A stretch of DNA of 64,000 nucleotides from Candidatus Yanofskybacteria bacterium (lineage in GTDB: Bacteria; Patescibacteriota; Minisyncoccia; 2-02-FULL-40-12; IGHO2-01-FULL-4-A): assembly GCA_016181175.1 (NCBI GenBank), contig JACOZV010000004.1:7718-71717 (forward strand), given 5' to 3'. The first letter of the stretch is position 1, and each line of letters opens with the position of its first letter. This document shows positions 6,985 to 64,000 of the stretch, in pieces. Made by a program: the position numbers and the translations under genes. A model generated the notes under the pieces. That model saw only the letters and a program-made list of their open reading frames with translations. It was not told the origin of the DNA and made no database searches.

Positions 6985-7003
6985 AGTTAAAATTGATAGC
7001 CTA

Positions 7004-7903
7004 CTATCTGAATCTTTTGTTATTTTTTATTAATTTTTTTGCTCTTCGTATTAACCGTGTTAAAAATGAAAAAAATAAAATAACCAAAAAAGTCGGCGTG
7101 CCAATTGCCAAATATGCAAATCCGTGGGGGACGAATTTCTCAATTCTTGCAAGCCCTACTTTATCCACGGCTTTTATCTCTATTATACTAAACGGATACA
7201 AATGCCGCAAAACATAAGGACTGTCTGCTTCACGCCACTGACCAAACAAACCAAGAGTTTTTTCCTTAACTTCATAGTGGCTAATGCCACTTCCCTTGTC
7301 TTGGGCTGAAAAAACGGCAACTCTGGCGCCATCAAATAAATTCTCGTTTTTGGTTATGAGTATCTCAAACTTTTCGGGCGCATAAAAATCCACAATTCGT
7401 GTTTTGATTATCTCTTGGTCGCCAGCTTCAAGAATATTAACAGCCGCTATCCCCGTGGTAACCGGCGCCTCCTGGCCTCCATCTTGGTGCAAATAAACCT
7501 TAAAATCTTCGAAAAATATCCGAGCTTCTCCTGTTTTCTTGGCCAAAAATGATAAATCAATAATTTTATCTTCCTTATCAGTGGTTGGTCCCTCTCCTCC
7601 GGGTATAATACCTGAAAATTTAATTGTATCTTTTCCGATTAAGGCTGGCCTATCAACCCATAAATTTATCAGCGAATTGGCATCAGAAAAATCTTTATAT
7701 TCAAGCAGGTTTGGGTCAAATTTGATTTTACTTTCTATGGCATTTATAAATTCTTCCGGATTTATCAGAACCTTAACTGAAAAAATCTGACCGGCCTCAA
7801 TTTCGCCCGGGATAGAAAAATATAATTTGGCCGCCGAGGCAAAATTAGAGAATAGTAAGTAGAAAGTAGAAAGTAGTAAAAAAATTAAATATTTTTTAAA
7901 CAT
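7004..7903 (-). CDS. Secreted cohesin-like domain protein with C-terminal TM anchor (299 aa)
   Basis: Signal peptide; domain pattern L.FSIPGEIEAGQIFSVKVLIN...SLINLWVDRP...FSGIIPGG parallels the N-terminal domain of the upstream giant protein; C-terminal TM TPTFLVILFFSFL. Confidence 0.6.
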   Translation of the reverse strand: MFKKYLIFLLLSTFYLLFSNFASAAKLYFSIPGEIEAGQIFSVKVLINPEEFINAIESKIKFDPNLLEYKDFSDANSLINLWVDRPALIGKDTIKFSGIIPGGEGPTTDKEDKIIDLSFLAKKTGEARIFFEDFKVYLHQDGGQEAPVTTGIAAVNILEAGDQEIIKTRIVDFYAPEKFEILITKNENLFDGARVAVFSAQDKGSGISHYEVKEKTLGLFGQWREADSPYVLRHLYPFSIIEIKAVDKVGLARIEKFVPHGFAYLAIGTPTFLVILFFSFLTRLIRRAKKLIKNNKRFR

Positions 7904-7930
7904 TTTTGTTCAGAAGTAATCTATCTGACT

Positions 7931-48456: not shown

Positions 48457-48904
48457 CAGAAACTACTTGATAGGTGGGTAAACGCCTTTATGGCCTATGA
48501 CTGAAAGAAGGCTTTTGCTGATCCAGAAGTGGCTATTAAACAGATATGTCAGCTACTGGCCACAATATAGTGAATTAAAAAACTACTTCCCTGGCCTATC
48601 AAAATCTGGCCCTCGGGGTTCTTTGTCTACAAAAGGTTAGAACTGGATAAAAACCGCTTAAACAAAGCACAAAAGGAAGCTCTCGCTTCCCTTCATTCAC
48701 ACTGGCTCGCTTGGCTAACCGCTTTCCGAACAACGGACTGGTCTAAAATCTTCCCATATCCATTGGTTTCTTTGAGGCAGATGCGCTACTTACTCACTTT
48801 AGTGGACTAACTTTTGCCCTCTTTTTTGCCTTTTTGAATAATTTTCGAACCGGACGACTCCAGCCCAAAAAATCGGGTACTTTACTGCTTACAATACTTT
48901 GCAT

Positions 48905-49075
48905 TTAGGATCCTTGTTTGCGCGCCGGTTCTTCCTTGATTCGACGAAGTGTTTCGTCGAAGAGAATGGCGAAGGCGTCATCAAGATTACGCTGACCTTC
49001 TTCAGTTAAAGGAAGCTGGTGATAGCGCAGCTCAACAAGTAACGGTTTCTGTTTTCTTTTTTTCTTGGTGGTCAT
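48905..49075 (-). CDS. Unlisted small basic protein (56 aa, MTTKKKRKQKPLLVELRYHQLPLTEEGQRNLDDAFAILFDETLRRIKEEPARKQGS)
   Basis: ATG 6 nt after the stop of the upstream nuclease-fold gene; last gene of the co-directional defence array; antitoxin/RHH-like size and charge. Confidence 0.35.
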   Translation of the reverse strand: MTTKKKRKQKPLLVELRYHQLPLTEEGQRNLDDAFAILFDETLRRIKEEPARKQGS

Positions 49076-49080
49076 GACAA

Positions 49081-50559
49081 TTACATTACCAACTTCCTAT
49101 ATGCCCCATCTAAAAAAGTGTCTATTGCTCTGATCTGATTATCTCTCCTTAAATCGAGGAGTGTTTTTATATCATCGTCGTCAAGCGCGATGATAAAACC
49201 TCGATCGTCGGACGCTGTATCTTTGCATCGTTGAATGAAGCGCGTCTTGTTGGTAAAACTCCTGCATATTAACAATCCGAATCTGCCACGATTAGTAGAA
49301 AACCTACCGGACAACTGGTCGAGTTCGGGGTTAGCCGGATCAGATGAGTAATTCTTACACTCAACAAAAATATAGCTTGATGGTACTCGCTTGTTCTGCG
49401 GTAATTCCCAAAAGAACCCTTTTTTTGCAGCGTTTTCGAAAACGATATCAACTTTCTTTCTCCTTTCATGTAGCGGCTGCTCCTTTTTCGGATTTATAAG
49501 AAACGGATAAAAAATGGCAGTGAGCGCCCCTTGAATATGGTTATGGAAATTGTCTGCGTCAGCATCACCAGTATCTATACGATCCAGTTCTGCTTTTAGA
49601 GCATCGAAGTCAAAAGCTGGGCGTGCACCTATAGCATCAATGTCTTCGTTACTAATTTCTTCGAGATTGTACTGTTTACTGTCGCGATATCGTCGCAAAA
49701 CTTCCGGATGATCTTTCGAAAAAGTGTAAAGAAATTGCTTCGAATGAGGGTGAAGTTCTTTGAGTGCCTTTTTTGTAGGCGGTCTACGCGTTCCATCTTT
49801 AAGCACCCTCACAAGGGCAGAGTTCGCGCTTAAATGCTCTTCCTGTAAAAAGTTTAGTACGAAATGCTGATAGTATTCCTGATGGCTAAACTCCAAACTA
49901 AAACGCGCAACTGCTTTAGGGACAAGTAAAACATTTCTATCATTACACACCGGAAGATTAACATACTCATTAGTCCATTCATTACGAACCGTATTCCAAA
50001 CAGTGCCGCTTGGTACGTTGTGCATTGTAATACCCCAAAATATACATTCGTTTTGGGTGTACTCGATTAACTTTCCGCGAATAATGTTAGTGGTCATGTC
50101 AGATATCTTGTCATGGCTGATGCCTTCGATAAGAAGTTCGCACTCTTCAAGATCTTTAAGAAACCCAGTTCTTACAGCCGAGCTTTCAGCCAACGCATCA
50201 TATAAATCGTTCGCCTGATCTCCTCCTACACCCCTACCTCTCGGGGATCCTCCAACAGACAAACCAAAACGAGTTTGATTCGGCTCTCGCAATCCTGAAA
50301 GCATGTATTTTGCGTCATCCTTTCTATCGGCTCTGATCAAGTCGATAACTCTTTGAAAAAAATTAACGATCTGATTGTGGCAATCGATTGACCACCTATC
50401 ATTCCGCTTTGAAAGAGCATAAGGATCAATAAACAAAGGAATATCCCCATTATTTATGGGAACATCGACAAAATCGAGTTCGTACTGGCTTTTACCAAGT
50501 CGGAAGTTCTCCGAAAAGGTTTCGTATCTTCTTGGTTGTTGTGTTCTTTGTCTTGGCAT
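49081..50559 (-). CDS. Hypothetical 492-aa protein with C-terminal PD-(D/E)xK restriction-endonuclease-like fold; candidate RM-associated effector/toxin
   Basis: C-terminal KKVDIVFENAAKKG...SYIFVECKNYSSD (D, E-x-K arrangement); N-terminal 330 aa unrecognised; starts 8 nt after hsdS stop. Confidence 0.5.
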   Translation of the reverse strand: MPRQRTQQPRRYETFSENFRLGKSQYELDFVDVPINNGDIPLFIDPYALSKRNDRWSIDCHNQIVNFFQRVIDLIRADRKDDAKYMLSGLREPNQTRFGLSVGGSPRGRGVGGDQANDLYDALAESSAVRTGFLKDLEECELLIEGISHDKISDMTTNIIRGKLIEYTQNECIFWGITMHNVPSGTVWNTVRNEWTNEYVNLPVCNDRNVLLVPKAVARFSLEFSHQEYYQHFVLNFLQEEHLSANSALVRVLKDGTRRPPTKKALKELHPHSKQFLYTFSKDHPEVLRRYRDSKQYNLEEISNEDIDAIGARPAFDFDALKAELDRIDTGDADADNFHNHIQGALTAIFYPFLINPKKEQPLHERRKKVDIVFENAAKKGFFWELPQNKRVPSSYIFVECKNYSSDPANPELDQLSGRFSTNRGRFGLLICRSFTNKTRFIQRCKDTASDDRGFIIALDDDDIKTLLDLRRDNQIRAIDTFLDGAYRKLVM

Positions 50560-50567
50560 GGTTCATG

Positions 50568-52250
50568 CTATTTGATCAATTTCTTATTCCAGCCCTTTGA
50601 TTTGATGAACTTGAGCGTGCCTTCGATTTCGGCTTTCCTAAACTTGTTTGGTTTCCATGCTTGAATCTTGTCATTGATCGTTGTGAGATCGTCGCTTTTT
50701 GCATCCTGCACAACCTTGCAGACGGTTGCCAAGCACTCAATTTGAGCGCTGGTGGAGTTTTTAATTGCCGGCATAAGATCATTAAGGACGGACTCCATGT
50801 TGCTCAAGATTTTTGAGTTGTATTTGAAGAGTTTACCGGAGTTAGCGCCTAAACCATAGACGCCGTTTTTTTGCTGAAAGAAGCCATTGCGAGGACTTGC
50901 GCCGGCGGTGATGGCTTTCTTAATCTGTAGATCGTAGGGGCCGAAGTTCTGCGAGGTAAAGCTGAAGCCGAGCGGTACCCTGTAAACTTCCTGCGCGAGA
51001 TATAAGAGCTTCGCCACAACCATTTCACCACGTTCAAAACGTTGCAACACCGCTCCGATGGCTTGCCACACCGGAAAGACACTTGCTTTGACAGGAACAG
51101 CAGCCACGCCCTCTTTTACCAACTCACCAGCAAGCGCTTTTGACAAGGCGGAATCAAAAAGTTCCTTCAGCTTCTCTTTTTGAACGAGAAGTCCTTTTTT
51201 ATACTCTTTAATAGCACTAAACCTCTCGGCAATGGCATGCTGGTCTGTCGTTGGTGGTACCATGATTTTTATTTTTTTAAGTGCGGTAGAGTTTACTGCG
51301 GCTTGATTTACCCACGGCGTGCATAGATAACGAAATCTATCGGTTGAATATAAGTATTGAAGATATATAGAGAAGTAGCGCGGATCTAATACTTTTTCGT
51401 TTGTGCGAATCCGAGTGATGTGATTTGAAAAGACATACTTGTAATCCTTGTCTATGTAAACGCTTTTTCCAACTAAACTAATACTGTTTGTATTATTAAA
51501 TAGGACATCACCACTCTTCAGGAAATAAGTTTCCGCATGTGGGTAATCCTGTGGAATATACTTGATGCTATCAAAGTTCAAACTACCGTCATCGCCGATA
51601 TTATTAGGTCTGATTTGTCCAATACCCTTCCCAACCGGACGGAAGGCAAAACCATTCGTAACATCGACTACTAACGCACCGATCTTTTCTTCCTTCCAGC
51701 TTTTTGACGATGATCCAAAAATCTTATTCAAAAGCGACTGAAAAAGCTGATCTGTTTTTTCAATAAGCGCATCATTGAGTTTTTGGGCTTCGCGGATAGA
51801 ATCAACACGTTCTGCAATTGCTTGTTGGGTATTTAAAGACGGCATTGGTACTCGTAAATTTTCAAGGAAGGTTCTATTCAAATGTGGTACTGCCGCTCCT
51901 TGCGCTGCTGATCTAATTTTTTGCTGATTAAATTGCAAAAGGTAAGCAAGGTATCGACTTTCCAGTGTTTCGTTATGAACCACTTTAGCAATCGTGGAAC
52001 CAACAAATCCTCTTAAACCGATACCAACGGTGCCGGCATAAGCACCATCCCAAACCAATAAAACATCGTCATTGTCGCATCGAACTCCGTTATTTTCTGA
52101 AGTGTAAAGCGTATATTGACCACTTCTTAAATTTTCAATGCCAATATAAGGCAAGGTGTCCTTTGCGGCTTCTGCTGCGGAAATCATCATTTTACCTTTC
52201 GCAAAAGAAATAAGTTCGCCTAATTTTTTTGTTTGATAATTACTTTGCAT
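50568..52250 (-). CDS. hsdS: Type I restriction-modification specificity subunit HsdS with ~180-aa C-terminal Panacea (DUF4065)-like extension
   Basis: Two TRD/conserved-repeat halves typical of HsdS (aa 1-380), then VVAKLLYLAQEVYRVPLGFSFTSQNFGPYDLQIKKAI resembling the Panacea KLQKLLYYAQ...GP motif; 560 aa versus ~400-450 for typical HsdS. Confidence 0.6.
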   Translation of the reverse strand: MQSNYQTKKLGELISFAKGKMMISAAEAAKDTLPYIGIENLRSGQYTLYTSENNGVRCDNDDVLLVWDGAYAGTVGIGLRGFVGSTIAKVVHNETLESRYLAYLLQFNQQKIRSAAQGAAVPHLNRTFLENLRVPMPSLNTQQAIAERVDSIREAQKLNDALIEKTDQLFQSLLNKIFGSSSKSWKEEKIGALVVDVTNGFAFRPVGKGIGQIRPNNIGDDGSLNFDSIKYIPQDYPHAETYFLKSGDVLFNNTNSISLVGKSVYIDKDYKYVFSNHITRIRTNEKVLDPRYFSIYLQYLYSTDRFRYLCTPWVNQAAVNSTALKKIKIMVPPTTDQHAIAERFSAIKEYKKGLLVQKEKLKELFDSALSKALAGELVKEGVAAVPVKASVFPVWQAIGAVLQRFERGEMVVAKLLYLAQEVYRVPLGFSFTSQNFGPYDLQIKKAITAGASPRNGFFQQKNGVYGLGANSGKLFKYNSKILSNMESVLNDLMPAIKNSTSAQIECLATVCKVVQDAKSDDLTTINDKIQAWKPNKFRKAEIEGTLKFIKSKGWNKKLIK

Positions 52251-52869
52251 AAGAATGCGCAGAGTATTGAATTCTACCTACGCGGTTTAATAAGCGCGTA
52301 TCCCGAACTTTTAAGTTTTCACCATCTTTATCGAATGGCCTTATTTCTGCTTTCCAAATAGATCTACAAAAAACAGTGTTCTGATCATTCATATATGTAA
52401 TTTCTAAACATACTGGTATCGCAAATTCAGCCATTTCATACCATTCTCTAAAATTTTTTATGAGTTGAAGTTTGATTCTAAATGACTCATCCTCTGTGGT
52501 CTGATAGAGGGGCACCTTATGATATCTTTCTTCTGCGATGGGCATACCGGTCGCTTTGGGTTGGGAGATATTAAAAGCCGATCCGCGACCAGAATTGAAA
52601 CAGTCAAACTCTATGGAAAAAACTATTTCAAAATGATTCGCATCAGCACGGATTATGCTTCCGGCATCCATCACACCATATCCATGCTCTACTTCACTAT
52701 GTCTAACCCCAACCCATATTCTTAATGGACGCAAAATTAAGCTGGGTACTGTACTTAATGCAGAATTCCAATCTGCTTTTCTGATAGCTTTTATCGAAAT
52801 CCACAGTGAAACAACTGCGGTTATCCCGACTAAAATATCTGCCGTTTTAGAAATTATTTCAAAATTCAT
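52240..52869 (-). CDS. Hypothetical N-terminally TM-anchored protein (209 aa) inserted between hsdM and hsdS
   Basis: TM ILVGITAVVSLWISI; no recognisable domain; 6-nt gap to hsdM, 11-nt overlap with hsdS. Confidence 0.45.
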   Translation of the reverse strand: MNFEIISKTADILVGITAVVSLWISIKAIRKADWNSALSTVPSLILRPLRIWVGVRHSEVEHGYGVMDAGSIIRADANHFEIVFSIEFDCFNSGRGSAFNISQPKATGMPIAEERYHKVPLYQTTEDESFRIKLQLIKNFREWYEMAEFAIPVCLEITYMNDQNTVFCRSIWKAEIRPFDKDGENLKVRDTRLLNRVGRIQYSAHSYAK

Positions 52870-52875
52870 AATCTT

Positions 52876-54405
52876 TTATCCCAGTTTATCTGTCATCTCT
52901 TCTTGTAATTTTGTTAGATCTTTATTGATTTTCTCAATTTCTTTCAAAATAATTTTTGGCTCGCGGTGTTTTATCTCTTCTCCGATAGCATATGGGTTAT
53001 AAGTGTTTGCAGAAAGTATGTAATCATTTTCGATGATTTCTTTAACTGGCGTAAACCATGCAAGCTGTTTTTCAACTGCGCGGTTTTTATGCCAGAGTTC
53101 CAACAGCTTCGGAATATCATTTCTATATTGGCTGCCGAATTTTTTGGATGCTGAAAGCGATGAACCATCACCTTGCATATCAAAGAACCATACCTTTGCA
53201 GATTCATCGAGTTTCGGCACCGCCTTTTTTTTGAACACCAAGAAGGACGTTTTTACGCCGGCATACGGCTGAAACACGCCTGCCGGCATGGAAACAACCG
53301 CCTGTAAGTCCGTATTTTCAAGTAGAAAACGGCGGATCTCTTTATCATCGCGGTTGGTACCAAAAAATGAACCTTCGGGAAGGATTATGCCGGCTCTGCC
53401 ATTGGGCTTGAGCGAGTTTATAACATGACCCAAAAATAGAACCTGTGTTTTGGTTGATTTGACCGGCAAGGTTGGTTTTATACGTTCCCGATCAACCTTT
53501 CCAGAGAATGGTGGATTTGTAAGGACAATATCGAATGTGCGCAGATCATCCTCATCTTCAGATCCAGCAACCGTGTCTTTGCGCTTAATGTTCGCACTCT
53601 CTATGCCATGTAATATCAAATTCATAAGTGCTAACCGCACCATCTCCGGATCAACATCAGAACCCAAAAAGGTTTTTTTGGTTAGAAATTCCCACTGTTT
53701 TTTATCGAGCTTATCTCCAAACCCCCTCTTGTGTCCATTTTCCTCTTCAATGCTTTTGGGATCGCTATTTCTTAATCGGATCCAATCATAGCCGGAGATG
53801 AGGAAGCCACCAGAACCACACGCAGGATCATAAACAGTTTCGCCAATTTTTGGATTCACCATTTCAACTATGACGCGAACGATATGACGCGGAGTGAGAA
53901 ATTGTCCAAGTTCGCCGGCTGATTCAATACTTGCAAGCAGCTCTTCATAAAGATCGCCCTTAACATCTGTGTCTAATCCTGTTAAATTGATCGTGTCAAT
54001 AATTTCAATCGTGTTTTTTAATGTAACAGAATGGGGAATTTCGAGCTTCGCATCATAAAAAATTTGCCGTATGTTAGAGTGTCCATTTTGCAATCGCTCC
54101 ACAAAGGGAAATACCTCATCACGAACAATTTTATACAATTCATCGCCAGCTTTTTCTTTCCAGCGCGACCATCGGAATTTTTCGTTTTTGCCCTCGAAAA
54201 TTGATTTATGTTTACGCCCAGTAAGTTCTTCGCCTCTCTCCATAGAAATATCCTGTTCCTCAAGCATTTTCAAAAAAAACAAAAAGCTAATCTGCTGGAT
54301 CCTTCTCACAGGGTCTCGTAAACCTGCACCCCAAAGATAATCGTTCAGGCGATCTAATTTTTGGCGAAACTCTATTCTTAATTGTTGTATTTTTTGTTCG
54401 GGCAT
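52876..54405 (-). CDS. hsdM: Type I RM N6-adenine DNA methyltransferase subunit
   Basis: NPPF motif (VLTNPPFSGK), AdoMet motif DPACGSGGFL. Confidence 0.85.
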   Translation of the reverse strand: MPEQKIQQLRIEFRQKLDRLNDYLWGAGLRDPVRRIQQISFLFFLKMLEEQDISMERGEELTGRKHKSIFEGKNEKFRWSRWKEKAGDELYKIVRDEVFPFVERLQNGHSNIRQIFYDAKLEIPHSVTLKNTIEIIDTINLTGLDTDVKGDLYEELLASIESAGELGQFLTPRHIVRVIVEMVNPKIGETVYDPACGSGGFLISGYDWIRLRNSDPKSIEEENGHKRGFGDKLDKKQWEFLTKKTFLGSDVDPEMVRLALMNLILHGIESANIKRKDTVAGSEDEDDLRTFDIVLTNPPFSGKVDRERIKPTLPVKSTKTQVLFLGHVINSLKPNGRAGIILPEGSFFGTNRDDKEIRRFLLENTDLQAVVSMPAGVFQPYAGVKTSFLVFKKKAVPKLDESAKVWFFDMQGDGSSLSASKKFGSQYRNDIPKLLELWHKNRAVEKQLAWFTPVKEIIENDYILSANTYNPYAIGEEIKHREPKIILKEIEKINKDLTKLQEEMTDKLG

Positions 54406-54407
54406 AG

Positions 54408-56663
54408 TTATCGTGTACAGATCCTTTGGTTAAGCTCCGAGAGAGCGGATTGTAAAACACCTTCCTCAAACACTCGCAACGCATAATTAAGACCACCGAT
54501 TTGCCGGAAGATCGGCTCGTTGAATATGGAAATATCAACCGGCTCTTTGCGAACGATACATTGCGACTTTACCAAACGCAGGATTTTTATTTGATCGGAT
54601 GCAAAGTTTTTCTCGATTAGCCATGATTCAAAAAGCTGATTTACACGCTGCTCATGTAGTTGCTCTTCTGTAGGGAACTCCTTTGTTTTGAGTGCTGCTT
54701 GTATGAAGTCATTGAGCGTGCCTACCGGATAGCGATATGCTTCTCGCAAGTTTGCTTCGTTAAAATAGAACTCCGGAGAATTAAGTTTTTCGGAAAGGAA
54801 GGCGGTTTCGTCATTTGAAAGATCTTCGCCTTGTTTAACTTTTGAAATAAGCGGCTCGGTTTTAGCCATCTCTTGAACTTGCTGCTCCCATGCCACCTGA
54901 TAATCATCGGCATCAATTCTTTCGCCTTCTGCTCCAACTTCGATATGCGCACGCTGCATAACCACGTCCATGTTTTCGGGTGCTGTTTCCGGCACTTGAA
55001 CAAAAAGTCGCTTCACCACTTCTTCCTCTTCCTGCGTTAAATCTTCAGCTTCGGTTCCCCACGGAATACCAGCTTTAATTTTTGCATAGGCAGAATACGG
55101 ATCAAATCCTTCGTCATTGAAGTAACGAGTAACGCCAGCAAAGTCATAAATACGAAAAGATGTTTTGCTGATTTTTTGATATAATCGGCTGCCACGTCCT
55201 CGCATCTGTTGGTAAAGGATCGGGGAACGTGTAGGACGCGCCATGATCAAGTTTTCTACCATTGGGACATCGATGCCGGTATCCATCATACCCACCGAAA
55301 CCGCTACCATCGGCATTTCTTGGTGCTTAAAACGTCTTATGGCTCCACGAGGATCTTCGGTATCGGAAGTAATAACTTCAGCGTATCTTCCCTTATATTC
55401 CGGATATGTCTGATTGAGATAATACGCCAATTGCGCAGCGTGTTTTTTCGTAACAGCATAAAGAATGGTTTTGCGATGGTGTTTTGGTTCATGCTTTTCT
55501 TCTTCCTCTCTGAATGTTTTTGCCAATTGCTCGTTTCTTGCCGGCACATTGATTTTTCTCTCCAAATCTTCGGCGTTGTAATCTTCACCCTCAAATTGCA
55601 CACCTTCTAAAGACACTTTGGTGTCGATCTGTAAGATCTCATAACCAGCAAGAAATCCCTCTTTGATGCCTCGTCGAATACTGTATAGAAATGTCGGTTT
55701 ACCCTTTTTTTCACGCTCATCCCAACAACCAAAGAGCTTATAGGTGTTACGATCAATAAACACACTCGGCGTTGCTGTAAGACCTATCCGGATTGCGTCA
55801 AAATGCGATAGGACAGCGTTGTAGATGCCGAAGATGGATCTATGTGCTTCGTCCGAGATAACCACATCAAAATAACCACTTGTAAAATTCGATAGTTGCG
55901 AATAAAGAGTGGGAAGTGTCGAGATGATTATTGAGGATTCGTCTTTTTGCTTGCCTCCGTAAAGAAGCTTTGTAGGATAATCTTTCAAAATTTCATCAAA
56001 AACTTCCTTTGTTTGTATGCCTAAATCAATGCGATCAACAAGAAATAAAACACGCCGGATGAGATTCGCTTCAAACAGCCGTTTGAGATAAAGAGCTATG
56101 GTATCTGTCTTGCCAGTGCCGGTTGCCATAGCGATGAGCATTTTGCGCAAACCGCCCTCAATGGTTTTGTCCATGATCTGCATGGCCTCCTTTTGATATG
56201 GGCGTGGTGTGCGTAATTCGCCACCTTTAAAATAATTGTCGGGTACAGGAATGGCGGTTATCGGCTTTTGATCTATTCGTAGGGTTTGGATTTTTTCTAA
56301 ATCGCGTTGAGAAAAGAAGGTAATTACCTTTTGCTCTGGACGATATTTGTAATCCCAAAAATAAATATCCTCTCCATTGGAAAGGAAAATGAAATCGATA
56401 CCCAGCTCTTCTGCGTAGGTCAATGCCTGCTGTTTTGCCAATACTGGTTCAGTTGAAAACCGCTTTGCTTCGATAAGCCCGATGGCTCTGCCGCGTCTAT
56501 CCCTCAAGAAATAATCGGCACGTCCATCCTTCACCGGATCTTCGGTTGAAACTTGATTTTTATCCTCAATATCCCAGCCAGCTTCGCGGAGTTTGCGATC
56601 GATGACAATGCGAGCGTCCGTTTCTCTTGAGTTGTTATTGTTATTTGTCATATTCATTTTCAT
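54408..56663 (-). CDS. hsdR: Type I restriction enzyme R subunit (compact, 751 aa)
   Basis: N-terminal PD-(D/E)xK (DYFLRD...IEAKR), SF2 helicase Walker A MATGTGKTDT and DEAH-like VVISDEAHRS. Confidence 0.75.
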   Translation of the reverse strand: MKMNMTNNNNNSRETDARIVIDRKLREAGWDIEDKNQVSTEDPVKDGRADYFLRDRRGRAIGLIEAKRFSTEPVLAKQQALTYAEELGIDFIFLSNGEDIYFWDYKYRPEQKVITFFSQRDLEKIQTLRIDQKPITAIPVPDNYFKGGELRTPRPYQKEAMQIMDKTIEGGLRKMLIAMATGTGKTDTIALYLKRLFEANLIRRVLFLVDRIDLGIQTKEVFDEILKDYPTKLLYGGKQKDESSIIISTLPTLYSQLSNFTSGYFDVVISDEAHRSIFGIYNAVLSHFDAIRIGLTATPSVFIDRNTYKLFGCWDEREKKGKPTFLYSIRRGIKEGFLAGYEILQIDTKVSLEGVQFEGEDYNAEDLERKINVPARNEQLAKTFREEEEKHEPKHHRKTILYAVTKKHAAQLAYYLNQTYPEYKGRYAEVITSDTEDPRGAIRRFKHQEMPMVAVSVGMMDTGIDVPMVENLIMARPTRSPILYQQMRGRGSRLYQKISKTSFRIYDFAGVTRYFNDEGFDPYSAYAKIKAGIPWGTEAEDLTQEEEEVVKRLFVQVPETAPENMDVVMQRAHIEVGAEGERIDADDYQVAWEQQVQEMAKTEPLISKVKQGEDLSNDETAFLSEKLNSPEFYFNEANLREAYRYPVGTLNDFIQAALKTKEFPTEEQLHEQRVNQLFESWLIEKNFASDQIKILRLVKSQCIVRKEPVDISIFNEPIFRQIGGLNYALRVFEEGVLQSALSELNQRICTR

Positions 56664-56676
56664 TCTTGAGCTTGAT

Positions 56677-58476
56677 CTATAAATTCTCGTAATACCCCCT
56701 GATCTTTTTCGCCATGAGTTTGCGGCGTTCCTTCAAAAACCTTTCGTAATCCCCAAGCTCCATATTCTGAAAGCCATCCGGTATGCAATTCTGTTTTAGG
56801 TTCTCGGCGAGATCTTTTTTATCGGTTATGCCGCCATACTTGAGCTTGCCTCCTTCGGTTTGTTTCATTACTTCAGCCATGTACTCTTTGGGAGATTTTT
56901 TGCCGACTTTGATATTTATTTCAGATTGAGCATAAGTAAAGTTGCCAATCTGGTTGTAATCGCCCCTACTTAAGCCGCCTGCTTTCTTCAGGTATTCCTT
57001 TGGAAAGAGATGATGGATGTCGCCGCGATGACTGATCATATTACCAACGGTAATGTCGGTTGAAAGAAAGCCCCTGTCGTTATTTTTAACCTGTGCCGCA
57101 AAAAAAAGATTGAGAAATGGATTGCTGATGCTCGCCTTATCGAGTTCCTGAATAAGCTGCGCGTTCCAAAAAGCATCGGAGAGTTGCGCTTCTTCGATTG
57201 ATTTCAAAATCTCGCCAGCATCGCCATTGGAAATCTGCTTAATATCCGAATCAAATTGGCTTTCCGGTGATCCGGAATAACGTCCGGTGAGGATAGACAT
57301 CACAAACCAGCGTTGGACATACTTTTCGATCAAGCTTGGATCGACACTCTTATCGCGCAGCTTGAGATATAAAATATAGGCAAAGTTAAGAGCGTTTTGC
57401 GAATTGATAAGGTCGTTGCTTATAAAGCCGCAGGATTTGATGATCATTACAAACCGCTTGAAGTTTGTTTCATTTACAAAATCCAGTACCGCATCACGGA
57501 GTTTTTGGAAAGACGCATCCATTATGTCTTGCTCAAAACTGCGTGTTTCAAAGTTACGCCCCGAAAGCAGTCCGACAAGATCCGCCATCTTGCCTCGTTC
57601 AAATTGTTTGGTGAAACTCACACGCAACACATCGGAATAATCCGGATCGTAGAGGTCGTCATTTTCATCTTTAAGCCATGCAAGTTTTGAAAGGTAAACA
57701 GTTTTGTTAAACTCTGCATCATTTTCAGTTATGTGTTTGTAAAACTGCGGCTCGCGCGCAAGATGGCAAAAATAGTCGACACACTTTCTTAAATTAACGC
57801 CGAAATTATCCTCCTTGTCATAAGAAGCTATCTTCGACATGGCAAAGTCAGCTTGGCTTAATACAACACCTTTGGAATTGATACGGATAAAAATCTCGGT
57901 AACCGTTTCAATATCTAAACCGGCATCAAGTTCAATAAAACCAACCTGCTTGCTTTTGATCTGTAATAACTTCTCAATGTTCTTTTCAATGAGTTCACGA
58001 TTTACGTCAAGATTTTTGTCGCAATAGTCAGTTACATCTTTGAATAAGCCGCCGTCCTTACTCATAAGTTTTGAGATGTCAGCTATCCACGCCTTGTCCT
58101 TTTTTATTGCCGGTGTGAGTGTGGCAAATTCTTCTATGATGGGGTGAAATGCAATATAGATCCGTTCCTCCTTATAATCTTTATTGATAATGTTTTGACC
58201 GAGAATTGCCGCACGGAGAGCGGTAATGCGTTGCTGTCCGTCAATCAAGACCTTTTTGCCGTTGGAAATGGAGCCATCTTTAAGACGAACATCGGGGTTT
58301 TTCCATGCAATGATATAGCCGATCGGATAGCCACGATAAAGCGAATCCATCAGATCGCGCACCTTTGTCGAATCCCAAACAAACGGACGCTGGATTTCCG
58401 GTATAGCGATTTCCTTTTCCTGAACCCAATTCAGGATATTGCTCACAAAGTATTGATTGACTGTGTATTTTTGCAT
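56677..58476 (-). CDS. GmrSD-family Type IV (modification-dependent) restriction endonuclease: DUF262 + DUF1524
   Basis: DUF262 motifs IPEIQRPFVW and DGQQRITAL; C-terminal HNH-like DIHHLFPKEY; start taken at MQKYTVNQY. Confidence 0.75.
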   Translation of the reverse strand: MQKYTVNQYFVSNILNWVQEKEIAIPEIQRPFVWDSTKVRDLMDSLYRGYPIGYIIAWKNPDVRLKDGSISNGKKVLIDGQQRITALRAAILGQNIINKDYKEERIYIAFHPIIEEFATLTPAIKKDKAWIADISKLMSKDGGLFKDVTDYCDKNLDVNRELIEKNIEKLLQIKSKQVGFIELDAGLDIETVTEIFIRINSKGVVLSQADFAMSKIASYDKEDNFGVNLRKCVDYFCHLAREPQFYKHITENDAEFNKTVYLSKLAWLKDENDDLYDPDYSDVLRVSFTKQFERGKMADLVGLLSGRNFETRSFEQDIMDASFQKLRDAVLDFVNETNFKRFVMIIKSCGFISNDLINSQNALNFAYILYLKLRDKSVDPSLIEKYVQRWFVMSILTGRYSGSPESQFDSDIKQISNGDAGEILKSIEEAQLSDAFWNAQLIQELDKASISNPFLNLFFAAQVKNNDRGFLSTDITVGNMISHRGDIHHLFPKEYLKKAGGLSRGDYNQIGNFTYAQSEINIKVGKKSPKEYMAEVMKQTEGGKLKYGGITDKKDLAENLKQNCIPDGFQNMELGDYERFLKERRKLMAKKIRGYYENL

Positions 58477-58477
58477 A

Positions 58478-58666
58478 TTACTTTTTTGGTTTCTTGATAT
58501 TCGATCGAGAACGAATAAACGCCTCGAGATCGCTCTCGCTGATCCGCCAATAGCCGACTTTGGTCGCCTTGAGCCGCCCACTCGAAATATAGCGATACAA
58601 GGATCGCTCGCTAACTCGCAAATACTTTGCCGCTTCACGTAATGTAAGAAATTTCTTTTTGGTCAT
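58478..58666 (-). CDS. Excisionase/Xis-family helix-turn-helix DNA-binding protein (62 aa)
   Basis: LTLREAAKYLRVSERSLYRYISSGRLKATKVGYWRISESDLEAF matches the excisionase-type HTH. Confidence 0.65.
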   Translation of the reverse strand: MTKKKFLTLREAAKYLRVSERSLYRYISSGRLKATKVGYWRISESDLEAFIRSRSNIKKPKK

Positions 58667-58693
58667 AGGTCAATTGATTTCATTCTATCGCAA

Positions 58694-58715
58694 AAAAGCC
58701 ACATGGTCAAATGTG
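58694..58715. promoter_or_regulatory. Operator-like motif TGGTCAAATGTGGCAA.GTC.G (copy 1) upstream of the xis-like gene
   Basis: 18/20 identical to the copy at 59331-59352. Confidence 0.45.
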
Positions 58716-58747: not shown

Positions 58748-59188
58748 TTAGCAGGGGTAACCATTTGGACAAATATCTTCCTGTCGTTCGGTCGTCGGAT
58801 CAATAGGGGTGTTTAAGTCCGGCACGGTATGGTTGCGTGCCATCAACCACCAAACGAGAAGTATCCAAAATCCCCAAAATAAAACTACTGGAACAACTTT
58901 TGAGATGTTTTTCTTTACTCTGATTTTCAACGGAGGGTGAAGTACATGTTTAAGCTCATGGCTTGCTAAATCGCCGTACTCGATTTTCTCCACACACTTT
59001 GGACACGCAACAAATTCTTTCTGCTGCTCGGAAAAGCGCTTGTTTACTCTTGCCCAGAACCCCTCGTCAATAAATGGATTTCTATTTTTTCCGCTCATAG
59101 TTTTGTGAGCGGCGAGTTTTGAAACACAAAACCCACCACTGGGAGGGCTTGCGCCCCTATGGAAGTTTCCCTCCATAACGTTAGGCAC
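58748..59188 (-). CDS. Hypothetical protein with Cys/His zinc-finger-like motif and C-terminal TM helix
   Basis: CPKCVEKIEYGDLASHELKH; TM VVPVVLFWGFWILLVWWLM. Confidence 0.4.
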   Translation of the reverse strand: MPNVMEGNFHRGASPPSGGFCVSKLAAHKTMSGKNRNPFIDEGFWARVNKRFSEQQKEFVACPKCVEKIEYGDLASHELKHVLHPPLKIRVKKNISKVVPVVLFWGFWILLVWWLMARNHTVPDLNTPIDPTTERQEDICPNGYPC

Positions 59189-59330
59189 GCCCCAAATGAT
59201 GGGTTTTCTATGCCTAACGATTTGCGACCATGCCGCCAGCCGAAGCCGATGGTTTAGATCATTTGATATCCAATTGTGTTTTTAAGTATATCAGAAAAAC
59301 ATGAGATCCTGCAACGGATGAAAAATACTG

Positions 59331-59869: not shown

Positions 59870-60052
59870 TACGCGGACATTATTTTTACAGAAGCGCTCG
59901 ATACTTTAAGGATAAAAGCGCTCAAAAAGTAGAAAAAATCCCTCAAGGGACATTTTGAAAATGTCCCCGATTTTTCTCAATAGTGAATGATATGGTCAAA
60001 GCAAGATACGCTTTGGCTTTTTTGTTTTCCCAAGCCAGCGCGGTCGGATGAT

Positions 60053-60298
60053 ATGAAGATACTAAATGAAAAAAACTTTTATCAAACTTCTGACTTTTGC
60101 CTCGCAACGGTTATTTCACTTTCTTTTCCGATAGAAGCAGTAGATCGGCAGAACACGCGAAAAGTTCAATTTATATTTCGTCGCAATAACGTCCTCGATA
60201 AGCTGATCGAGGATTTTTGGCGTGGTGAGATCCGAATTGATCCACAGCTTTTCTATAACCAATTACGAGTGATGAAAGCTCGGATTTACAACGACTAA
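60053..60298 (+). CDS. Hypothetical small protein
   Basis: ORF 59987-60298; likely start MKILNEK. Confidence 0.35.
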   Translation: MKILNEKNFYQTSDFCLATVISLSFPIEAVDRQNTRKVQFIFRRNNVLDKLIEDFWRGEIRIDPQLFYNQLRVMKARIYND

Positions 60299-60565: not shown

Positions 60566-62125
60566 ATGAAAAACATTTTTAGTGGTAACCACAAAAAAGG
60601 AAAGGTGTCCGACAAACTGAAGGGCGCGGAATTGGTTTTAGATGTGATCGAAAAAAGCGACTTATGGCTCTTTCACGATCAATTAAACGAGGCATACGCC
60701 GTTATAGCTGGTGATGGAGCATCAATAATGAAAATCGACTCGCAAAAGTTCCACAACTGGCTTTTTAATCATATCTATGACGAAACCGGAAAGATCAGCA
60801 ACACAGCCGCGTGCGAGGCAGCCATAAAGGTTCTGAAACATCAAGCAGAAACTGGGAATCTATTTGAGCTTGGAGTTAGGGTAAAACTGCGTGAGGGCGG
60901 TATTTGGTACGATCTCGGCGGTCAAAACTTTGTGAGTATCGCAGAAGATGGATGGTTGGTAACTGATCCTCCGCAACCAATCCTCTTTAAGAGGTTCGGG
61001 CATCAAAAAGAGCAGGTGCGACCGGAACGCGAGGGTAGCATGAATGAGTTTATGGAGCTTATTAACCTACAAGACAAAAAAGAATCTTTGCTCCTCATGG
61101 TTTACTTGGTTGCATCGTTTATTCCTAACTTTCCTCATCCTGTATTGATTGTGCATGGTTCGCAGGGGGCTGCTAAAAGTACCGCATGTAAATTGATTAA
61201 AGAATTAGTGGATCCATCTGCATTAGAAACTTCGACTATAAACGACGATAAAGACATAAAAGAATTGGTACAAGCCGCATCGCATCATTGGCTGTTAGTT
61301 CTCGATAATATCTCCTATATCTCCGAGAAAATCTCGGACACGATCTCACGAATATGTACCGGAGGCGGATTATCTAAAAGAATACATTATAGCAATGACG
61401 ACGACTTCATTTACAACTTTATGCACATAGTCGCCATTAACGGAATCCATCAGATCGTAAGCAAGCCCGATCTCCTCGATCGATCAATCTTGTTGGCGCT
61501 TGAACGCATCCCTGAAGATAAAAGGATAACGGAGGAGCAACTTTGGGGTCGTTTCAATGCAATGAAAGGAAGAGTTCTCGGCGCGGTTTTCGATGCCGTA
61601 TCCGGAGCATTGCGTGAATATCCGAATGTGCAGTTAGCAACATTGCCACGAATGGCGGACTTTGCACGCTGGGGATGCGCTATTGCGAGGACGCTCGGCT
61701 ACACCGACGAGGACTTTATGAATGTATACAAAACGAATATCGGAAGGCAGAACCAAGAGGCGCTTTCAGCAAGCGCCACAGCAGCAGTCATCATCAAGCT
61801 CATGGAAGATAATGATGTTTTCGAAGATACACCATCTGCTCTTTTGCGACTAATGGATCCGATAGCCGACGATCTCAAGGTAAAAGAAGCGAAGGATTAT
61901 CCACGACAGGCAAACTGGCTTTGGAGGCGCATTGAAGCGGTTATACCGAACCTTGCTGACGCCGGCATAAAGGTCGAGCAAACGAAAGATACTGAACGGA
62001 AGATAAAAATATCAAAGATATTGCGCGGTGATGACAGCACTGAAATTATGCCGTCTTCCGAAAAACCAGCAGAAGAACCTGCAAAAGACAGCATCGACAG
62101 CATAGACGGCACTTTCCCCCTGTAG
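60566..62125 (+). CDS. Phage/plasmid primase-associated SF3 helicase (D5/P4-alpha-like) replication protein
   Basis: Walker A VHGSQGAAKST, Walker B LLVLDNISY, motif C VAINGIH in SF3 spacing. Confidence 0.6.
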   Translation: MKNIFSGNHKKGKVSDKLKGAELVLDVIEKSDLWLFHDQLNEAYAVIAGDGASIMKIDSQKFHNWLFNHIYDETGKISNTAACEAAIKVLKHQAETGNLFELGVRVKLREGGIWYDLGGQNFVSIAEDGWLVTDPPQPILFKRFGHQKEQVRPEREGSMNEFMELINLQDKKESLLLMVYLVASFIPNFPHPVLIVHGSQGAAKSTACKLIKELVDPSALETSTINDDKDIKELVQAASHHWLLVLDNISYISEKISDTISRICTGGGLSKRIHYSNDDDFIYNFMHIVAINGIHQIVSKPDLLDRSILLALERIPEDKRITEEQLWGRFNAMKGRVLGAVFDAVSGALREYPNVQLATLPRMADFARWGCAIARTLGYTDEDFMNVYKTNIGRQNQEALSASATAAVIIKLMEDNDVFEDTPSALLRLMDPIADDLKVKEAKDYPRQANWLWRRIEAVIPNLADAGIKVEQTKDTERKIKISKILRGDDSTEIMPSSEKPAEEPAKDSIDSIDGTFPL

Positions 62126-62700: not shown

Positions 62701-62808
62701 GCACTACAATCCGTGATTTTTTATTGGCTTCTGCCCTTAAGGGGGGCGGTGCCGGAAGCCAATCCTCACGGAAAAAGCGACTGGGGTACCACCGCTCCCT
62801 TTAAGTTT

Positions 62809-64000
62809 ATGAAAAACGAACAAAATACAACTAAAAATAAGGCGATTTCCTTTTGCCGCGTAAGCTCGAAGGAGCAAGCCGATGAGGGTTATTCGCTTGA
62901 ATCGCAGGAAAAGCTACTTGAGGCATACGCTACAGACGATAAACGAGATTTTAAGATCATCAAGATCTATAAGATCACGGAATCAGCGAGCGGAAAGCAG
63001 GTACGAAAGACATTTCAGGAAGCACTGAAATACGCCACTGATCAAAAAATAAAGATCATTCTGTGTGAAAAGATTGATCGATTAACACGCAACCTTAAAG
63101 ACGCCAGCACAATTGACGATTGGGTAAAGGATAAAGACACTACCGGTCGGCAGGTTCACTTTGTAAAGGAAAACTTTATTCTTAACGCTGATACAAAGGC
63201 ACACGATAACCTTGTGTGGGATATGAAGGTGGCTATTGCGCGTTTCTATTCAAACAATCTATCCGAAGAAGTGAAGAAGGGGCAAAAGGAAAAGATCGCG
63301 CAAGGATGGCTTCCTACGAAGCCGCCGCTTGGGTATCGCACGATCGGCGACAAAGGGCATAAAACGCACGAAATTGACGAGAAGATCGCCCCATATATCC
63401 GTAAGATGTTTGAGCTTTACGCTACCGGTAATTACTCAACGCTTTCTTTGGTAAGGGTTATGTACAAGGAAGGTTTGCGCAACCGCGAGGGTAAAAGGGT
63501 TGGAAAGAGTAGATTGCATCAATTGCTTTCGGATCCATTTTATTACGGCAAGATGCGATGGAAAGGCGAGGTTGTTAAAGCAGAACACGAACCCCTTATT
63601 CCGAAAGAATTGTTTGACGACGTTCAAAAAATACTTGTCCGGAAGATCAAATATCCCATGTATAGGAAACACCTCCCTATATTTAAGGCGATGCTGCGCT
63701 GCGGAGAGTGCAAAGGCACTGTTACGTGGGAAATACAAAAAAATCATTGGTACGCTCACTGTAGCCATTACCGAAACTGCAAGCAAAAAAAGTATGTCCG
63801 GCAGGAAGCTGTCGAAGAACAGCTTTTCCCATACTTTGATCGAGTTGCCCCGATAAACACGCGCTTGCTGCAGTGGCTTGAGAAGCAGCTTAAAGAAAGC
63901 CACACCGAAGAGATCAAATACAACACCTCAAAGCGAGAGGAGTTAAACCGGATCATCGCAACCGCCGATAGACGGATCGAGGCGGCGTATAAAGAGAAGC
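62809..64000 (+). CDS. Large serine recombinase (integrase), partial - continues past window end
   Basis: N-terminal resolvase catalytic domain ISFCRVSSKEQADEGYSLESQ with catalytic Ser; recombinase domain; Cys zinc-ribbon CGECKG...CSHYRNC; no stop before 64000. Confidence 0.8.
   Translation, partial: MKNEQNTTKNKAISFCRVSSKEQADEGYSLESQEKLLEAYATDDKRDFKIIKIYKITESASGKQVRKTFQEALKYATDQKIKIILCEKIDRLTRNLKDASTIDDWVKDKDTTGRQVHFVKENFILNADTKAHDNLVWDMKVAIARFYSNNLSEEVKKGQKEKIAQGWLPTKPPLGYRTIGDKGHKTHEIDEKIAPYIRKMFELYATGNYSTLSLVRVMYKEGLRNREGKRVGKSRLHQLLSDPFYYGKMRWKGEVVKAEHEPLIPKELFDDVQKILVRKIKYPMYRKHLPIFKAMLRCGECKGTVTWEIQKNHWYAHCSHYRNCKQKKYVRQEAVEEQLFPYFDRVAPINTRLLQWLEKQLKESHTEEIKYNTSKREELNRIIATADRRIEAAYKEK

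Follow-up and report, generated by a model that had tools for sequence, protein, structure and literature searches.

The Type I restriction-modification (R-M) operon studied here, from Candidatus Yanofskybacteria, encodes a specificity subunit, HsdS, with an additional C-terminal domain, and directly behind it a 492-aa protein with a nuclease domain. This raises the question whether the additional domain (hereafter the tail) holds the nuclease in check. The preliminary description of this DNA had proposed that it does: the tail would be a Panacea antitoxin domain, by which the nuclease is neutralized as one half of a toxin/antitoxin pair tethered to the R-M complex. The operon lies in a window (the whole stretch of DNA that was analysed) of 64,000 nucleotides, to which all positions refer; all features described are on the minus strand.

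Organization of the operon

The operon consists of seven tightly packed genes and is adjoined by mobile-element genes. A promoter-like site, TTGACC-17-TAGAAT, is found upstream (58682..58710) and agrees at 10 of 12 positions, as a consensus match only; a terminator-like hairpin with a 12-pair stem and then a T-rich stretch follows the operon (48669..48696), as a pattern match only. The first gene (56677..58638) encodes a GmrSD-like (DUF262) protein of 653 aa (Pfam GmrSD_N, E = 6.8e-33; PADLOC HEC-05, E = 7e-32) and is a Type IV-restriction-like defence gene. It is followed after 13 nt by hsdR (54408..56663) for the restriction subunit of 751 aa (Pfam ResIII, Helicase_C, HSDR_N and EcoEI_R_C; PADLOC REase_I, E = 6.7e-70) and by hsdM (52876..54405) for the methyltransferase subunit of 509 aa (Pfam N6_Mtase, E = 1e-61, and HsdM_N; PADLOC MTase_I, E = 3.4e-141). 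Both share the operon with hsdS (50568-52250, 560 aa), so that HsdS is accompanied by the gene set that characterizes a Type I R-M system. The gene for the 492-aa protein (49081-50559), which belongs to the family DUF8370, begins on the same strand exactly 8 nt after hsdS, as had been described, and this spacing is compatible with translational coupling.

Two small genes complete the operon, and for neither of them did family-profile searches (Pfam, PADLOC, NCBIfam, PHROG) give a match. The one between hsdM and hsdS, orf209 (52240..52869), overlaps the start of hsdS by 11 nt and encodes a hydrophobic N-terminal segment that, judged by eye, resembles a membrane helix. Among its 15 homologues, those in the loci L097 and L098 are located immediately upstream of hsdS, in L098 again with an 11-nt overlap, and the one in L099 lies outside any R-M locus; the tail-bearing Kaiserbacteria locus L009 is without it. 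Thus, orf209 is a recurrent gene linked to R-M. The last one is a candidate gene, the basic ORF of 56 aa that had been noted previously (48905..49075, 5 nt after the 492-aa ORF). A single similar ORF was detected; it lies behind a 72%-identical DUF8370 in L005 and shares the motif 'A[FY]xILFDE'. A 90%-identical copy of DUF8370 is followed by a different ORF of 55 aa.

The tail of HsdS and its relatives

HsdS is a complete specificity subunit with two target-recognition domains plus a C-terminal domain of 178 aa. The core (residues 1 to about 378; 51117..52250) contains both recognition domains and the conserved helices; residues 4-377 cover positions 2-392 of the 392 of PADLOC Specificity_I (E = 4.8e-65), and Pfam Methylase_S is matched by two stretches (E = 5.7e-34). 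Tail-less relatives from sister loci measure 372-383 aa, which bears out that hsdS is longer than usual, residues about 383-560 being extra. This tail (residues 383-560; 50571..51104) is basic and mostly helical, and belongs to the superfamily of the DarG C-terminal domain and Panacea.

The best match to the tail in both sequence and fold is DarG of the DarTG system (PDB 7yk3). The tail aligned with positions 167-326 of the 329 of the PADLOC DarG model (E = 6.5e-11) and with positions 185-324 of the 338 of the NCBIfam model (E = 6.5e-7), and tblastn retrieved with it, at 30% identity, a genuine DarG that adjoins DarT on Cytobacillus plasmids. An AF2 model of the tail (pLDDT 86) gave one meaningful PDB match in Foldseek, the C-terminal domain of DarG (7yk3_B, TM 0.68 over the entire domain, probability 1.0). 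A DUF4065/SocA-like match had been expected from this comparison; what was found is a relative from the same superfamily, as homology between DUF4065 proteins and the C-terminal domain of DarG has been stated (PMC13621843). The proposal that the tail is a Panacea domain consequently stands as regards the superfamily. Its alignment spans the Pfam model SocA_Panacea (PF13274) from position 2 to 113 of 113, and it has the N-terminal 'AKLLYL...(F/Y)GP' motif of PanA and SocA, so that the 'KLLYLAQ...GP' pattern is more than chance. However, its score of 16.1 bits (E = 0.022) is below the cut-off of 25.7 bits, and it is nearer to DarG. Only 3 of 82 members of the tail family reached E < 0.01 with SocA_Panacea. 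The tail is fused to HsdS, instead of being free or fused to an HTH domain, and has no conserved toxin partner in a two-gene locus. A comparison of profiles by hhalign, of the tail family against the HTH-Panacea protein of the related locus L098, yielded a probability of 28% together with E = 6e-4 over 65 N-terminal columns. By sequence and predicted fold, the tail is a homologue of the C-terminal domain with which DarG binds DarT, and a more distant one of Panacea/DUF4065.

The protein as a whole differs from DarG. HsdS takes the place of the macrodomain, the N-terminal 378 aa being without a Macro match in Pfam, and the whole protein scores 25.8 with NCBIfam DarG, for which the cut-off is 250. 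With the Cytobacillus DarT as query (tblastn, E <= 1) nothing was retrieved from the window or from any locus with a tailed HsdS; the sole match, in L016, is a true DarTG. In addition, the tail is basic (pI 9.8, and 9-9.9 in 26 of 28 family members), whereas the C-terminal domain of DarG has been described as a mimic of ssDNA. Because of this difference the mechanism of DarG may not transfer to the tail.

A profile search among 1.84 billion representatives revealed 266 relatives of the tail, mostly proteins of 550-650 aa that end with this domain. All 82 long relatives that were scanned carry Methylase_S and hence are HsdS proteins, and near-invariant residues of the tail are kept across at least 82 diverged members. 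The tailed HsdS subfamily is large, and the tail is a distinguishing trait of HsdS as such; no description of this subfamily or of the recurrent fusion was found in the literature. Each of the 10 other tail-bearing loci has the order hsdM-hsdS::tail-hsdR or hsdR-hsdM-hsdS::tail, and hsdM and hsdR are the only constant companions of the tail. In seven of them hsdR comes directly after the tail, overlapping the stop codon or starting a few nt later, with no toxin gene in between. The survey of extended hsdS genes for a constant downstream gene, which had been suggested beforehand, disclosed DUF8370 in none of the 10. This includes L009, where HsdR and HsdM are 81% and 75% identical to those of the window.

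Other genes do occur near the tail. In L014 a Mrr_cat gene directly follows hsdS::tail with an overlap of 16 nt, in L015 a gene for HARE-HTH plus PDDEXK_5 with an overlap of 11 nt, and in L101 a gene for a 162-aa protein of membrane-spanning look (judged by eye) with an overlap of 8 nt. In L010-L013 nuclease-like genes are positioned after hsdR, two of them judged by eye only. Where the sequence of a tail-bearing locus extends far enough, the 3' end of the operon in most cases includes an accessory nuclease of the PD-(D/E)xK type (Mrr_cat, PDDEXK_5, NucS_C-like, DUF2779 or DUF8370), a tally that covers tail-bearing loci only. No accessory gene is present in L009.

The DUF8370 nuclease and its neighbourhoods

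The 492-aa protein fits the models of its family along its full length: it matched both PDC-M36A models of PADLOC (E = 2.1e-48 and 3.6e-20) and phrog_27295 (E = 3.6e-105), and among the matches listed all 120 homologues carry the precomputed annotation PF28123 (Pfam DUF8370). Its N-terminal domain (residues 1 to about 329; 49573..50559) accounts for the stronger PDC-M36A match on residues 16-240. Its C-terminal PD-(D/E)xK nuclease domain (residues about 330-492; 49084..49572) has a FokI-like fold, and the D...E-x-K core read from the sequence earlier proved to be D371, E400 and K402, invariant across 40 homologues. An identification as PrrC or RloC was rejected, given the FokI-like DNA nuclease fold and the absence of a match to PrrC/RloC or other abortive-infection models. 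PDC-M36 is a candidate system in PADLOC of which this would be protein A; no partner protein was detected in the window or among the 10 neighbours tested, and no mention of PDC-M36 or DUF8370 was found in the papers searched.

In its architecture, an N-terminal module followed by a C-terminal PD-(D/E)xK domain, DUF8370 resembles the Type IIS enzymes FokI and N.BspD6I and the Type IV enzymes Mrr, MspJI and AspBHI. Foldseek gave no confident match for the N-terminal 330 aa, and weak whole-length alignments of the protein to N.BspD6I and FokI (E 0.03-0.05, TM 0.22-0.28). The N-terminal domain is possibly a recognition module like that of FokI and N.BspD6I, but it is strongly conserved, unusually so for a domain of sequence-specific recognition.

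The family comprises about 3000 clusters. DUF8370 mostly stands alone amid varied defence genes without a conserved partner; its neighbours include a MvaI/BcnI restriction enzyme together with its methyltransferase, OLD, GmrSD, Shedu, a Cas4-like protein, AbiV and Csx23. None of the 90 other DUF8370 loci contains the tail. The 90%-identical copy has an upstream gene different from that of the window, and in L022, whose HsdM is 76% identical to that of the window, DUF8370 starts 18 nt after a tail-less hsdS of 373 aa. A tail-less hsdS is immediately upstream of DUF8370 in 8 of 83 loci (about seven independent ones, since L070 and L072 look like duplicates). Nine further loci of the 83 have one homologous neighbour family in common; the members checked are LexA-S24-methyltransferase fusions in L006, L017, L018 and L038, and a plain C5 methyltransferase in L033. 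Thus DUF8370 frequently adjoins methyltransferase genes, much as mrr adjoins hsdRMS in E. coli K-12, although in most of the 83 loci an adjacent methyltransferase is absent, and the window offers hsdM only. From these neighbourhoods DUF8370 would seem to behave like a restriction nuclease of Type IIS or Type IV style that often lands beside DNA-methyltransferase genes, and to have no need of the HsdS tail.

Possible functions of the tail

In the preliminary description the tail binds and neutralizes the 492-aa nuclease until the R-M complex is put out of action by anti-restriction proteins of a phage and this toxin is freed, which would cause abortive infection. The homology of the tail to a toxin-binding antitoxin domain, the location of both genes 8 nt apart on one strand of one operon and the conserved catalytic triad are in its favour. 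It also has a precedent in EcoprrI, the Type I R-M complex that keeps the anticodon nuclease PrrC latent; both cases have an extra nuclease-fold gene within a Type I operon and the idea of a masked effector in common. DUF8370, however, has a DNA-nuclease fold without similarity to PrrC, is placed at the operon end after hsdS, and is linked to Type I systems occasionally and irrespective of the tail. Above all, tail and DUF8370 were never seen together elsewhere (0 of 10 tail loci, 0 of 90 DUF8370 loci), so that the pairing does not pass the test of co-occurrence set for it beforehand; nor do they form a PanAT locus, for which the criterion is a two-gene locus conserved across species, its toxin always of one family and no more than 100 nt away (PMC8832971). 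The 90%-identical nuclease in another context, the tail-less sister system L022 and the compact three-gene hsdM/S/R operons of the tail family, with nothing extra between hsdS and hsdR, speak against it as well. An obligately neutralized toxin is not expected to be distributed as DUF8370 is, in a family of about 3000 clusters and mostly stand-alone. This model is therefore regarded as very improbable.

The explanation that we prefer, and to which we give roughly an even chance, is that two independent modules, a tailed Type I R-M system and a mobile DUF8370 nuclease, came to share one operon on a mobile island. The nuclease would be a single-gene defence system in which a conserved N-terminal domain is combined with a FokI-like cleavage domain. 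The tail most probably arose from a PanA-type antitoxin gene that was parked just after hsdS and became fused to it; the unfused state would survive in L098, where a tail-less hsdS is separated from hsdR by a canonical HTH-Panacea PanA and an ORF of 130 aa. In the Type I complex the tail might serve as a protein-binding module. Its ligand would most likely be HsdR, which it could gate or dock, because no other toxic nuclease accompanies the tail in every locus; this leading guess derives from co-occurrence only. Nearly identical HsdM/HsdR backbones with a tailed HsdS in L009 and a tail-less one in L022 argue against a co-evolved contact with HsdR, and the tail looks like an add-on.

The accessory nucleases at the 3' end of most tail loci of sufficient length favour docking and speak against the two-module explanation, as does the close spacing of hsdS and DUF8370 in the window. 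The tail could tether whichever nuclease sits at that end and keep it latent on the R-M complex: HsdR in most loci, elsewhere an Mrr-like, PDDEXK_5, NucS-like, DUF2779-linked or DUF8370 protein. The variable genes directly after hsdS::tail (L014, L015, L101 and the window), hsdR at this position in seven loci, the nuclease-like genes of L010-L013 and the ability of Panacea to swap partners (PMC8832971) agree with such a dock. We nevertheless consider it rather unlikely, for the background rate is uncontrolled and Type IV/Mrr-like nucleases are common beside Type I systems, DUF8370 also follows a tail-less hsdS (8 loci), L009 does without an accessory gene, and the nuclease families concerned normally occur without antitoxins. 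A similarly low probability is assigned to the idea that the tail has lost its antitoxin role and now, as a basic domain, binds nucleic acid or else senses phage proteins, in either case modulating Type I activity. Acidic anti-restriction proteins that mimic DNA might be its targets, for example, or it might bring in a protease as does SocA, a Panacea member that works as a proteolytic adaptor (PMC8832971). The high pI of the family, its near-invariant residues and the seven loci without a toxin gene before hsdR are in line with this; on the other hand, a high pI is common in the lysine-rich proteomes of the CPR (candidate phyla radiation), no DNA-binding motif was identified in the tail, and experiments offer no precedent for a domain on HsdS in this role.

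In its most general form, which we deem somewhat less probable still, the tail would be a universal docking site that holds swappable operon nucleases (HsdR, Mrr-like, PDDEXK_5, NucS-like, DUF8370) latent. If this were true, a phage that neutralizes restriction would thereby release a second nuclease, and the guard known from PrrC and EcoprrI would be generalized in these operons, built from a hyperpromiscuous antitoxin domain.

The C-terminal extension of HsdS

The hsdS gene of the window (50568-52250, minus strand, 560 aa), annotated as 'restriction endonuclease subunit S', encodes a complete two-TRD specificity subunit in residues 4-377, to which residues ~383-560 are additional. This extension, referred to here as the tail, had been called Panacea-like in the preliminary description. 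When it was compared on its own with the Pfam model SocA_Panacea, the whole model was aligned at E=0.022, which lies below the gathering score. The C-terminal part of the DarG models matched far better (NCBIfam, E=6.5e-7; PADLOC, E=6.5e-11), and tblastn of the tail against plasmids retrieved a macrodomain protein adjoining an annotated DarT, i.e. a true DarG. An AF2 model of the tail based on five sequences was confident (pLDDT 86.2). Comparison of this model with the PDB by Foldseek gave a single genuine match, to 7yk3, whose chains B and D are the DarG C-terminal domain in complex with DarT (TM 0.68-0.69, probability 1.0, end-to-end alignment). The tail is thus neither a third TRD nor a coiled coil. 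PDB sequence searches with the tail and with its profile gave nothing useful, and in the PDB the DarG domain was found by fold search only. According to PMC13621843 (2026), DUF4065/Panacea proteins and this DarG domain are homologues, which together with these matches makes 'Panacea-like' acceptable at the level of the superfamily. Strict Pfam membership failed, the tail being closer to the DarG C-terminal domain than to Panacea. The tail family is strongly basic, whereas the DarG C-terminal domain is described as an ssDNA mimic.

A search of 1.84 billion representative proteins with the tail profile gave 266 matches at E<=1e-3, of which 120 were at <=1e-10 and 49 at <=1e-30. Most were proteins of 550-650 aa that end in this domain, Methylase_S was present in all 82 long members scanned, and the shorter matches that were checked proved to be single-TRD HsdS fusions or gene-call fragments. 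Near-invariant positions in the family are G408, E409, M410, K414, G437, F458, E505 and W532 (HsdS numbering). At least 82 diverged clusters belong to it, mainly from Patescibacteria but also from Omnitrophota and one gammaproteobacterial genome; the tail was absent from the viral contigs searched. This shows that the fusion of HsdS to a DarG-C-terminal-domain/Panacea-like domain is real and recurrent. Although few defence systems have been studied as thoroughly as Type I restriction enzymes, full-text searches of the literature that combined these enzymes or HsdS with Panacea/DUF4065 or DarG revealed no described HsdS subfamily with an antitoxin-type, toxin-binding domain.

Several matches were set aside. 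Proteins that seemed to consist of the tail alone (P0001-P0004, P0187 and P0232) were incomplete HsdS fusions or had been called from a start inside such a fusion, and one locus (L016; L numbers denote the other loci compared) was a true DarTG locus. In L010 HsdM, one target-recognition domain and the DarG-like tail appear to be combined in a single 864-aa ORF (6946-9540, plus strand).

The operon and its DUF8370 nuclease

In the window hsdS is one of seven closely spaced genes on the minus strand. They are a GmrSD-like gene (56677-58638, 653 aa), hsdR (54408-56663, 751 aa), hsdM (52876-54405, 509 aa), orf209 (52240-52869, 209 aa), hsdS itself, a 492-aa gene (49081-50559) and a 56-aa ORF (48905-49075). 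The first four are separated by gaps of 13, 2 and 6 nt, orf209 and hsdS overlap by 11 nt, and 5 nt separate the 492-aa gene from the 56-aa ORF. A promoter-like site (58682-58710, minus strand) upstream and a terminator-like hairpin (48669-48696, minus strand) downstream are pattern matches only. A LOOT RNA lies just upstream of the operon (59144-59260, minus strand; Rfam RF03000, 71 bits, gathering score 46), and a 146-aa ORF (58748-59188) has its start within it. The source genome is a metagenome assembly. To the right of the operon, on the plus strand, lie a DUF5659 gene (59987-60298), a gene for a 519-aa protein with a Walker-A-like motif seen by eye (60566-62125) and a large serine recombinase gene that extends past the window end (62713-63999). 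This is mobile-element gene content. Genes of the same recombinase or DUF5659 families also lie beside L010-L013 and L015, all of them tail-bearing, so that these Type I systems appear to be carried on integrative elements.

The 492-aa protein, annotated as hypothetical, matches the PADLOC candidate PDC-M36A and phrog_27295. About 3000 homologous clusters were found; all those listed carry the Pfam annotation DUF8370 and many are named from Patescibacteria. The D...E-x-K nuclease core noticed earlier was borne out, D371, E400 and K402 being invariant in an alignment of 40 sequences. The AF2 model was confident (pLDDT 89.6), and Foldseek gave weak whole-length alignments only, to N.BspD6I and FokI, with no confident match for the N-terminal 330 aa. 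A PDB search with the DUF8370 profile returned nothing useful, no relevant literature on PDC-M36 or DUF8370 was found, GenBank phages contained no DUF8370 match and none of 10 DUF8370 neighbours tested was a PDC-M36 partner protein. DUF8370/PDC-M36A is a predicted FokI-like nuclease that is often linked to methyltransferase genes; it was already listed as a defence candidate, and the FokI-like structural assignment is added here.

Companions of the tail and of DUF8370

The 492-aa gene directly follows hsdS on the same strand with a gap of 8 nt (50559 versus 50568), as had been stated in the preliminary description, in which the tail was proposed to neutralize this nuclease as a toxin/antitoxin pair tethered to the restriction system. 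The pairing was examined in ten independent tail-bearing loci (L001, L002, L004 and L009-L015) from Patescibacteria, Saccharibacteria, Omnitrophota and one gammaproteobacterial genome. The locus search used 8 closer tail sequences; the 28-sequence profile held no stretch conserved enough for searching. A DUF8370 homologue was present in none of the ten, and DarT was found neither in these loci nor in the window. Conversely, the tail was absent from all 90 DUF8370 loci besides the window. Of these, 80 came from metagenomes, 3 from exact look-ups and 6 from viral contigs of IMG/VR, which also lacked hsdS, and one holds a 90%-identical copy. Of the three refuting conditions named in the preliminary description, the first two do not hold, as the extension is no third TRD or coiled coil and the catalytic triad is conserved, but the third does. 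Because the pair occurs together in none of these other loci, the proposed pairing is unsupported and the region is best read, from gene content, as two modules that would share one operon. This removes an attractive interpretation and constitutes a clean negative.

The neighbours of DUF8370 were varied defence genes, among which two types recurred. The first, seen in 8 loci (L070 and L072 look like duplicates of each other), was an hsdS without tail immediately upstream of DUF8370 and in the same orientation. The second was one family found in 9 loci, upstream and divergent in 7 and downstream on the same strand in 2. All four of the upstream divergent members tested were LexA-S24-DNA-methyltransferase fusions, and one of the two downstream members (L033) was a plain C5 methyltransferase. 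The most telling case is L022, with the order hsdR-hsdM-KAP NTPase-hsdS-DUF8370, in which HsdM is 76% identical to that of the window and an hsdS of 373 aa without tail lies 18 nt from DUF8370. In L104 the 90%-identical copy comes after a gene with an unrelated C-terminus. Together with the absence of the tail from the 90 loci and the variety of neighbours, this indicates that DUF8370 is a mobile, self-sufficient predicted nuclease gene, which can do without the tail and tends to lie near methyltransferase genes. The KAP-family P-loop NTPase of L022 (2271-4886, plus strand) has 871 aa. The four LexA-S24 fusions, all on the minus strand and divergent from DUF8370 (L006, 6085-7947; L017, 403-2064; L018, 1308-2810; L038, 2891-4432), have an unusual repressor-methyltransferase architecture, the methyltransferase being of the N6/N4 type in three and of the C5 type in L038. 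A cleavable LexA-like switch might in this way be coupled to methylation or restriction.

For the tail, the gene order was hsdM-hsdS::tail-hsdR or hsdR-hsdM-hsdS::tail in all ten loci. In seven, hsdR directly follows the tail, at <=5 nt from the stop codon (L004, L010-L013) or overlapping it (L001, L002). The nearest relative of the window system, L009 from Kaiserbacteria (HsdR 81% and HsdM 75% identical), has the tail, lacks orf209 and DUF8370 and continues with a cation-efflux gene. The only constant companions of the tail are hsdM and hsdR. We take the tail to be a protein-binding module that would act inside the Type I complex, and because hsdM and hsdR alone always accompany it, HsdR would be its likeliest ligand. 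Alternatively, the tail could be a promiscuous dock for nucleases encoded at the 3' end of the operon. Most tail-bearing loci with sufficient flank do carry there an operonic accessory gene of the PD-(D/E)xK type, of one family or another: Mrr_cat (L014), HARE-HTH with PDDEXK_5 (L015), NucS_C-like with DUF5655 (L011, L012), DUF2779 (L013, L014), genes with nuclease motifs read by eye (L010, L013) and DUF8370 in the window. Type IV nucleases are well known to sit beside Type I systems, and the same pattern could reflect no more than this habit. We regard a docking function as unlikely and retain a ligand within the Type I complex as the preferred reading.

A two-gene module recurs among these accessory genes, a nuclease of ~470-480 aa and then a DUF2779 protein, located after hsdR in L013 (11919-13373 and 13357-14970) and after hsdS::tail in L014 (9510-10913 and 10904-12400). 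Its nuclease carries Mrr_cat in L014 and, by eye, a FokI-like 'PD...DAK' motif in L013. A PDB search with the joined unknown accessory genes found nothing. In L101 a 162-aa protein of membrane-spanning appearance, judged by eye, overlaps the tail stop codon.

The two small genes of the operon were also considered as partners. The orf209 product has no family match and a hydrophobic N-terminal segment resembling, by eye, a membrane helix. Among 15 homologues, two lie directly upstream of hsdS (L097, 7001-7660; L098, 4573-5241), in L098 with the same 11-nt overlap of the hsdS start, and one lies outside restriction-modification loci beside a DUF4145 gene (L099). As it is missing from the other tail-bearing loci and present with tail-less hsdS, orf209 was rejected as cognate toxin of the tail. 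The 56-aa ORF was rejected as a conserved partner, since only one similar ORF was found, of 81 aa (L005, 9487-9732, plus strand), 4 nt downstream of a 72%-identical DUF8370. Their C-terminal parts have an 'A[FY]xILFDE' motif in common that was detected in no other locus; the ORF downstream of the 90%-identical DUF8370, of 55 aa, is a different one.

Origin and meaning of the fusion

In L098 the interval between a tail-less hsdS and hsdR (6518-7589) holds a canonical HTH-Panacea PanA and a 130-aa ORF that is RelE-like by eye, and the corresponding slot of L097 (9294-10679) holds a Fic gene and a 62-aa ORF. It is plausible that toxin-antitoxin-type cassettes in this position were the precursor of the HsdS::tail fusion, which may have arisen by capture of a PanA gene by hsdS. 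The fusion would physically link restriction-modification and toxin-antitoxin machinery, and would show how a free-standing PanA-type gene can be incorporated into an enzyme. The ligand of the tail would tell whether control or guard modules are built into Type I systems.
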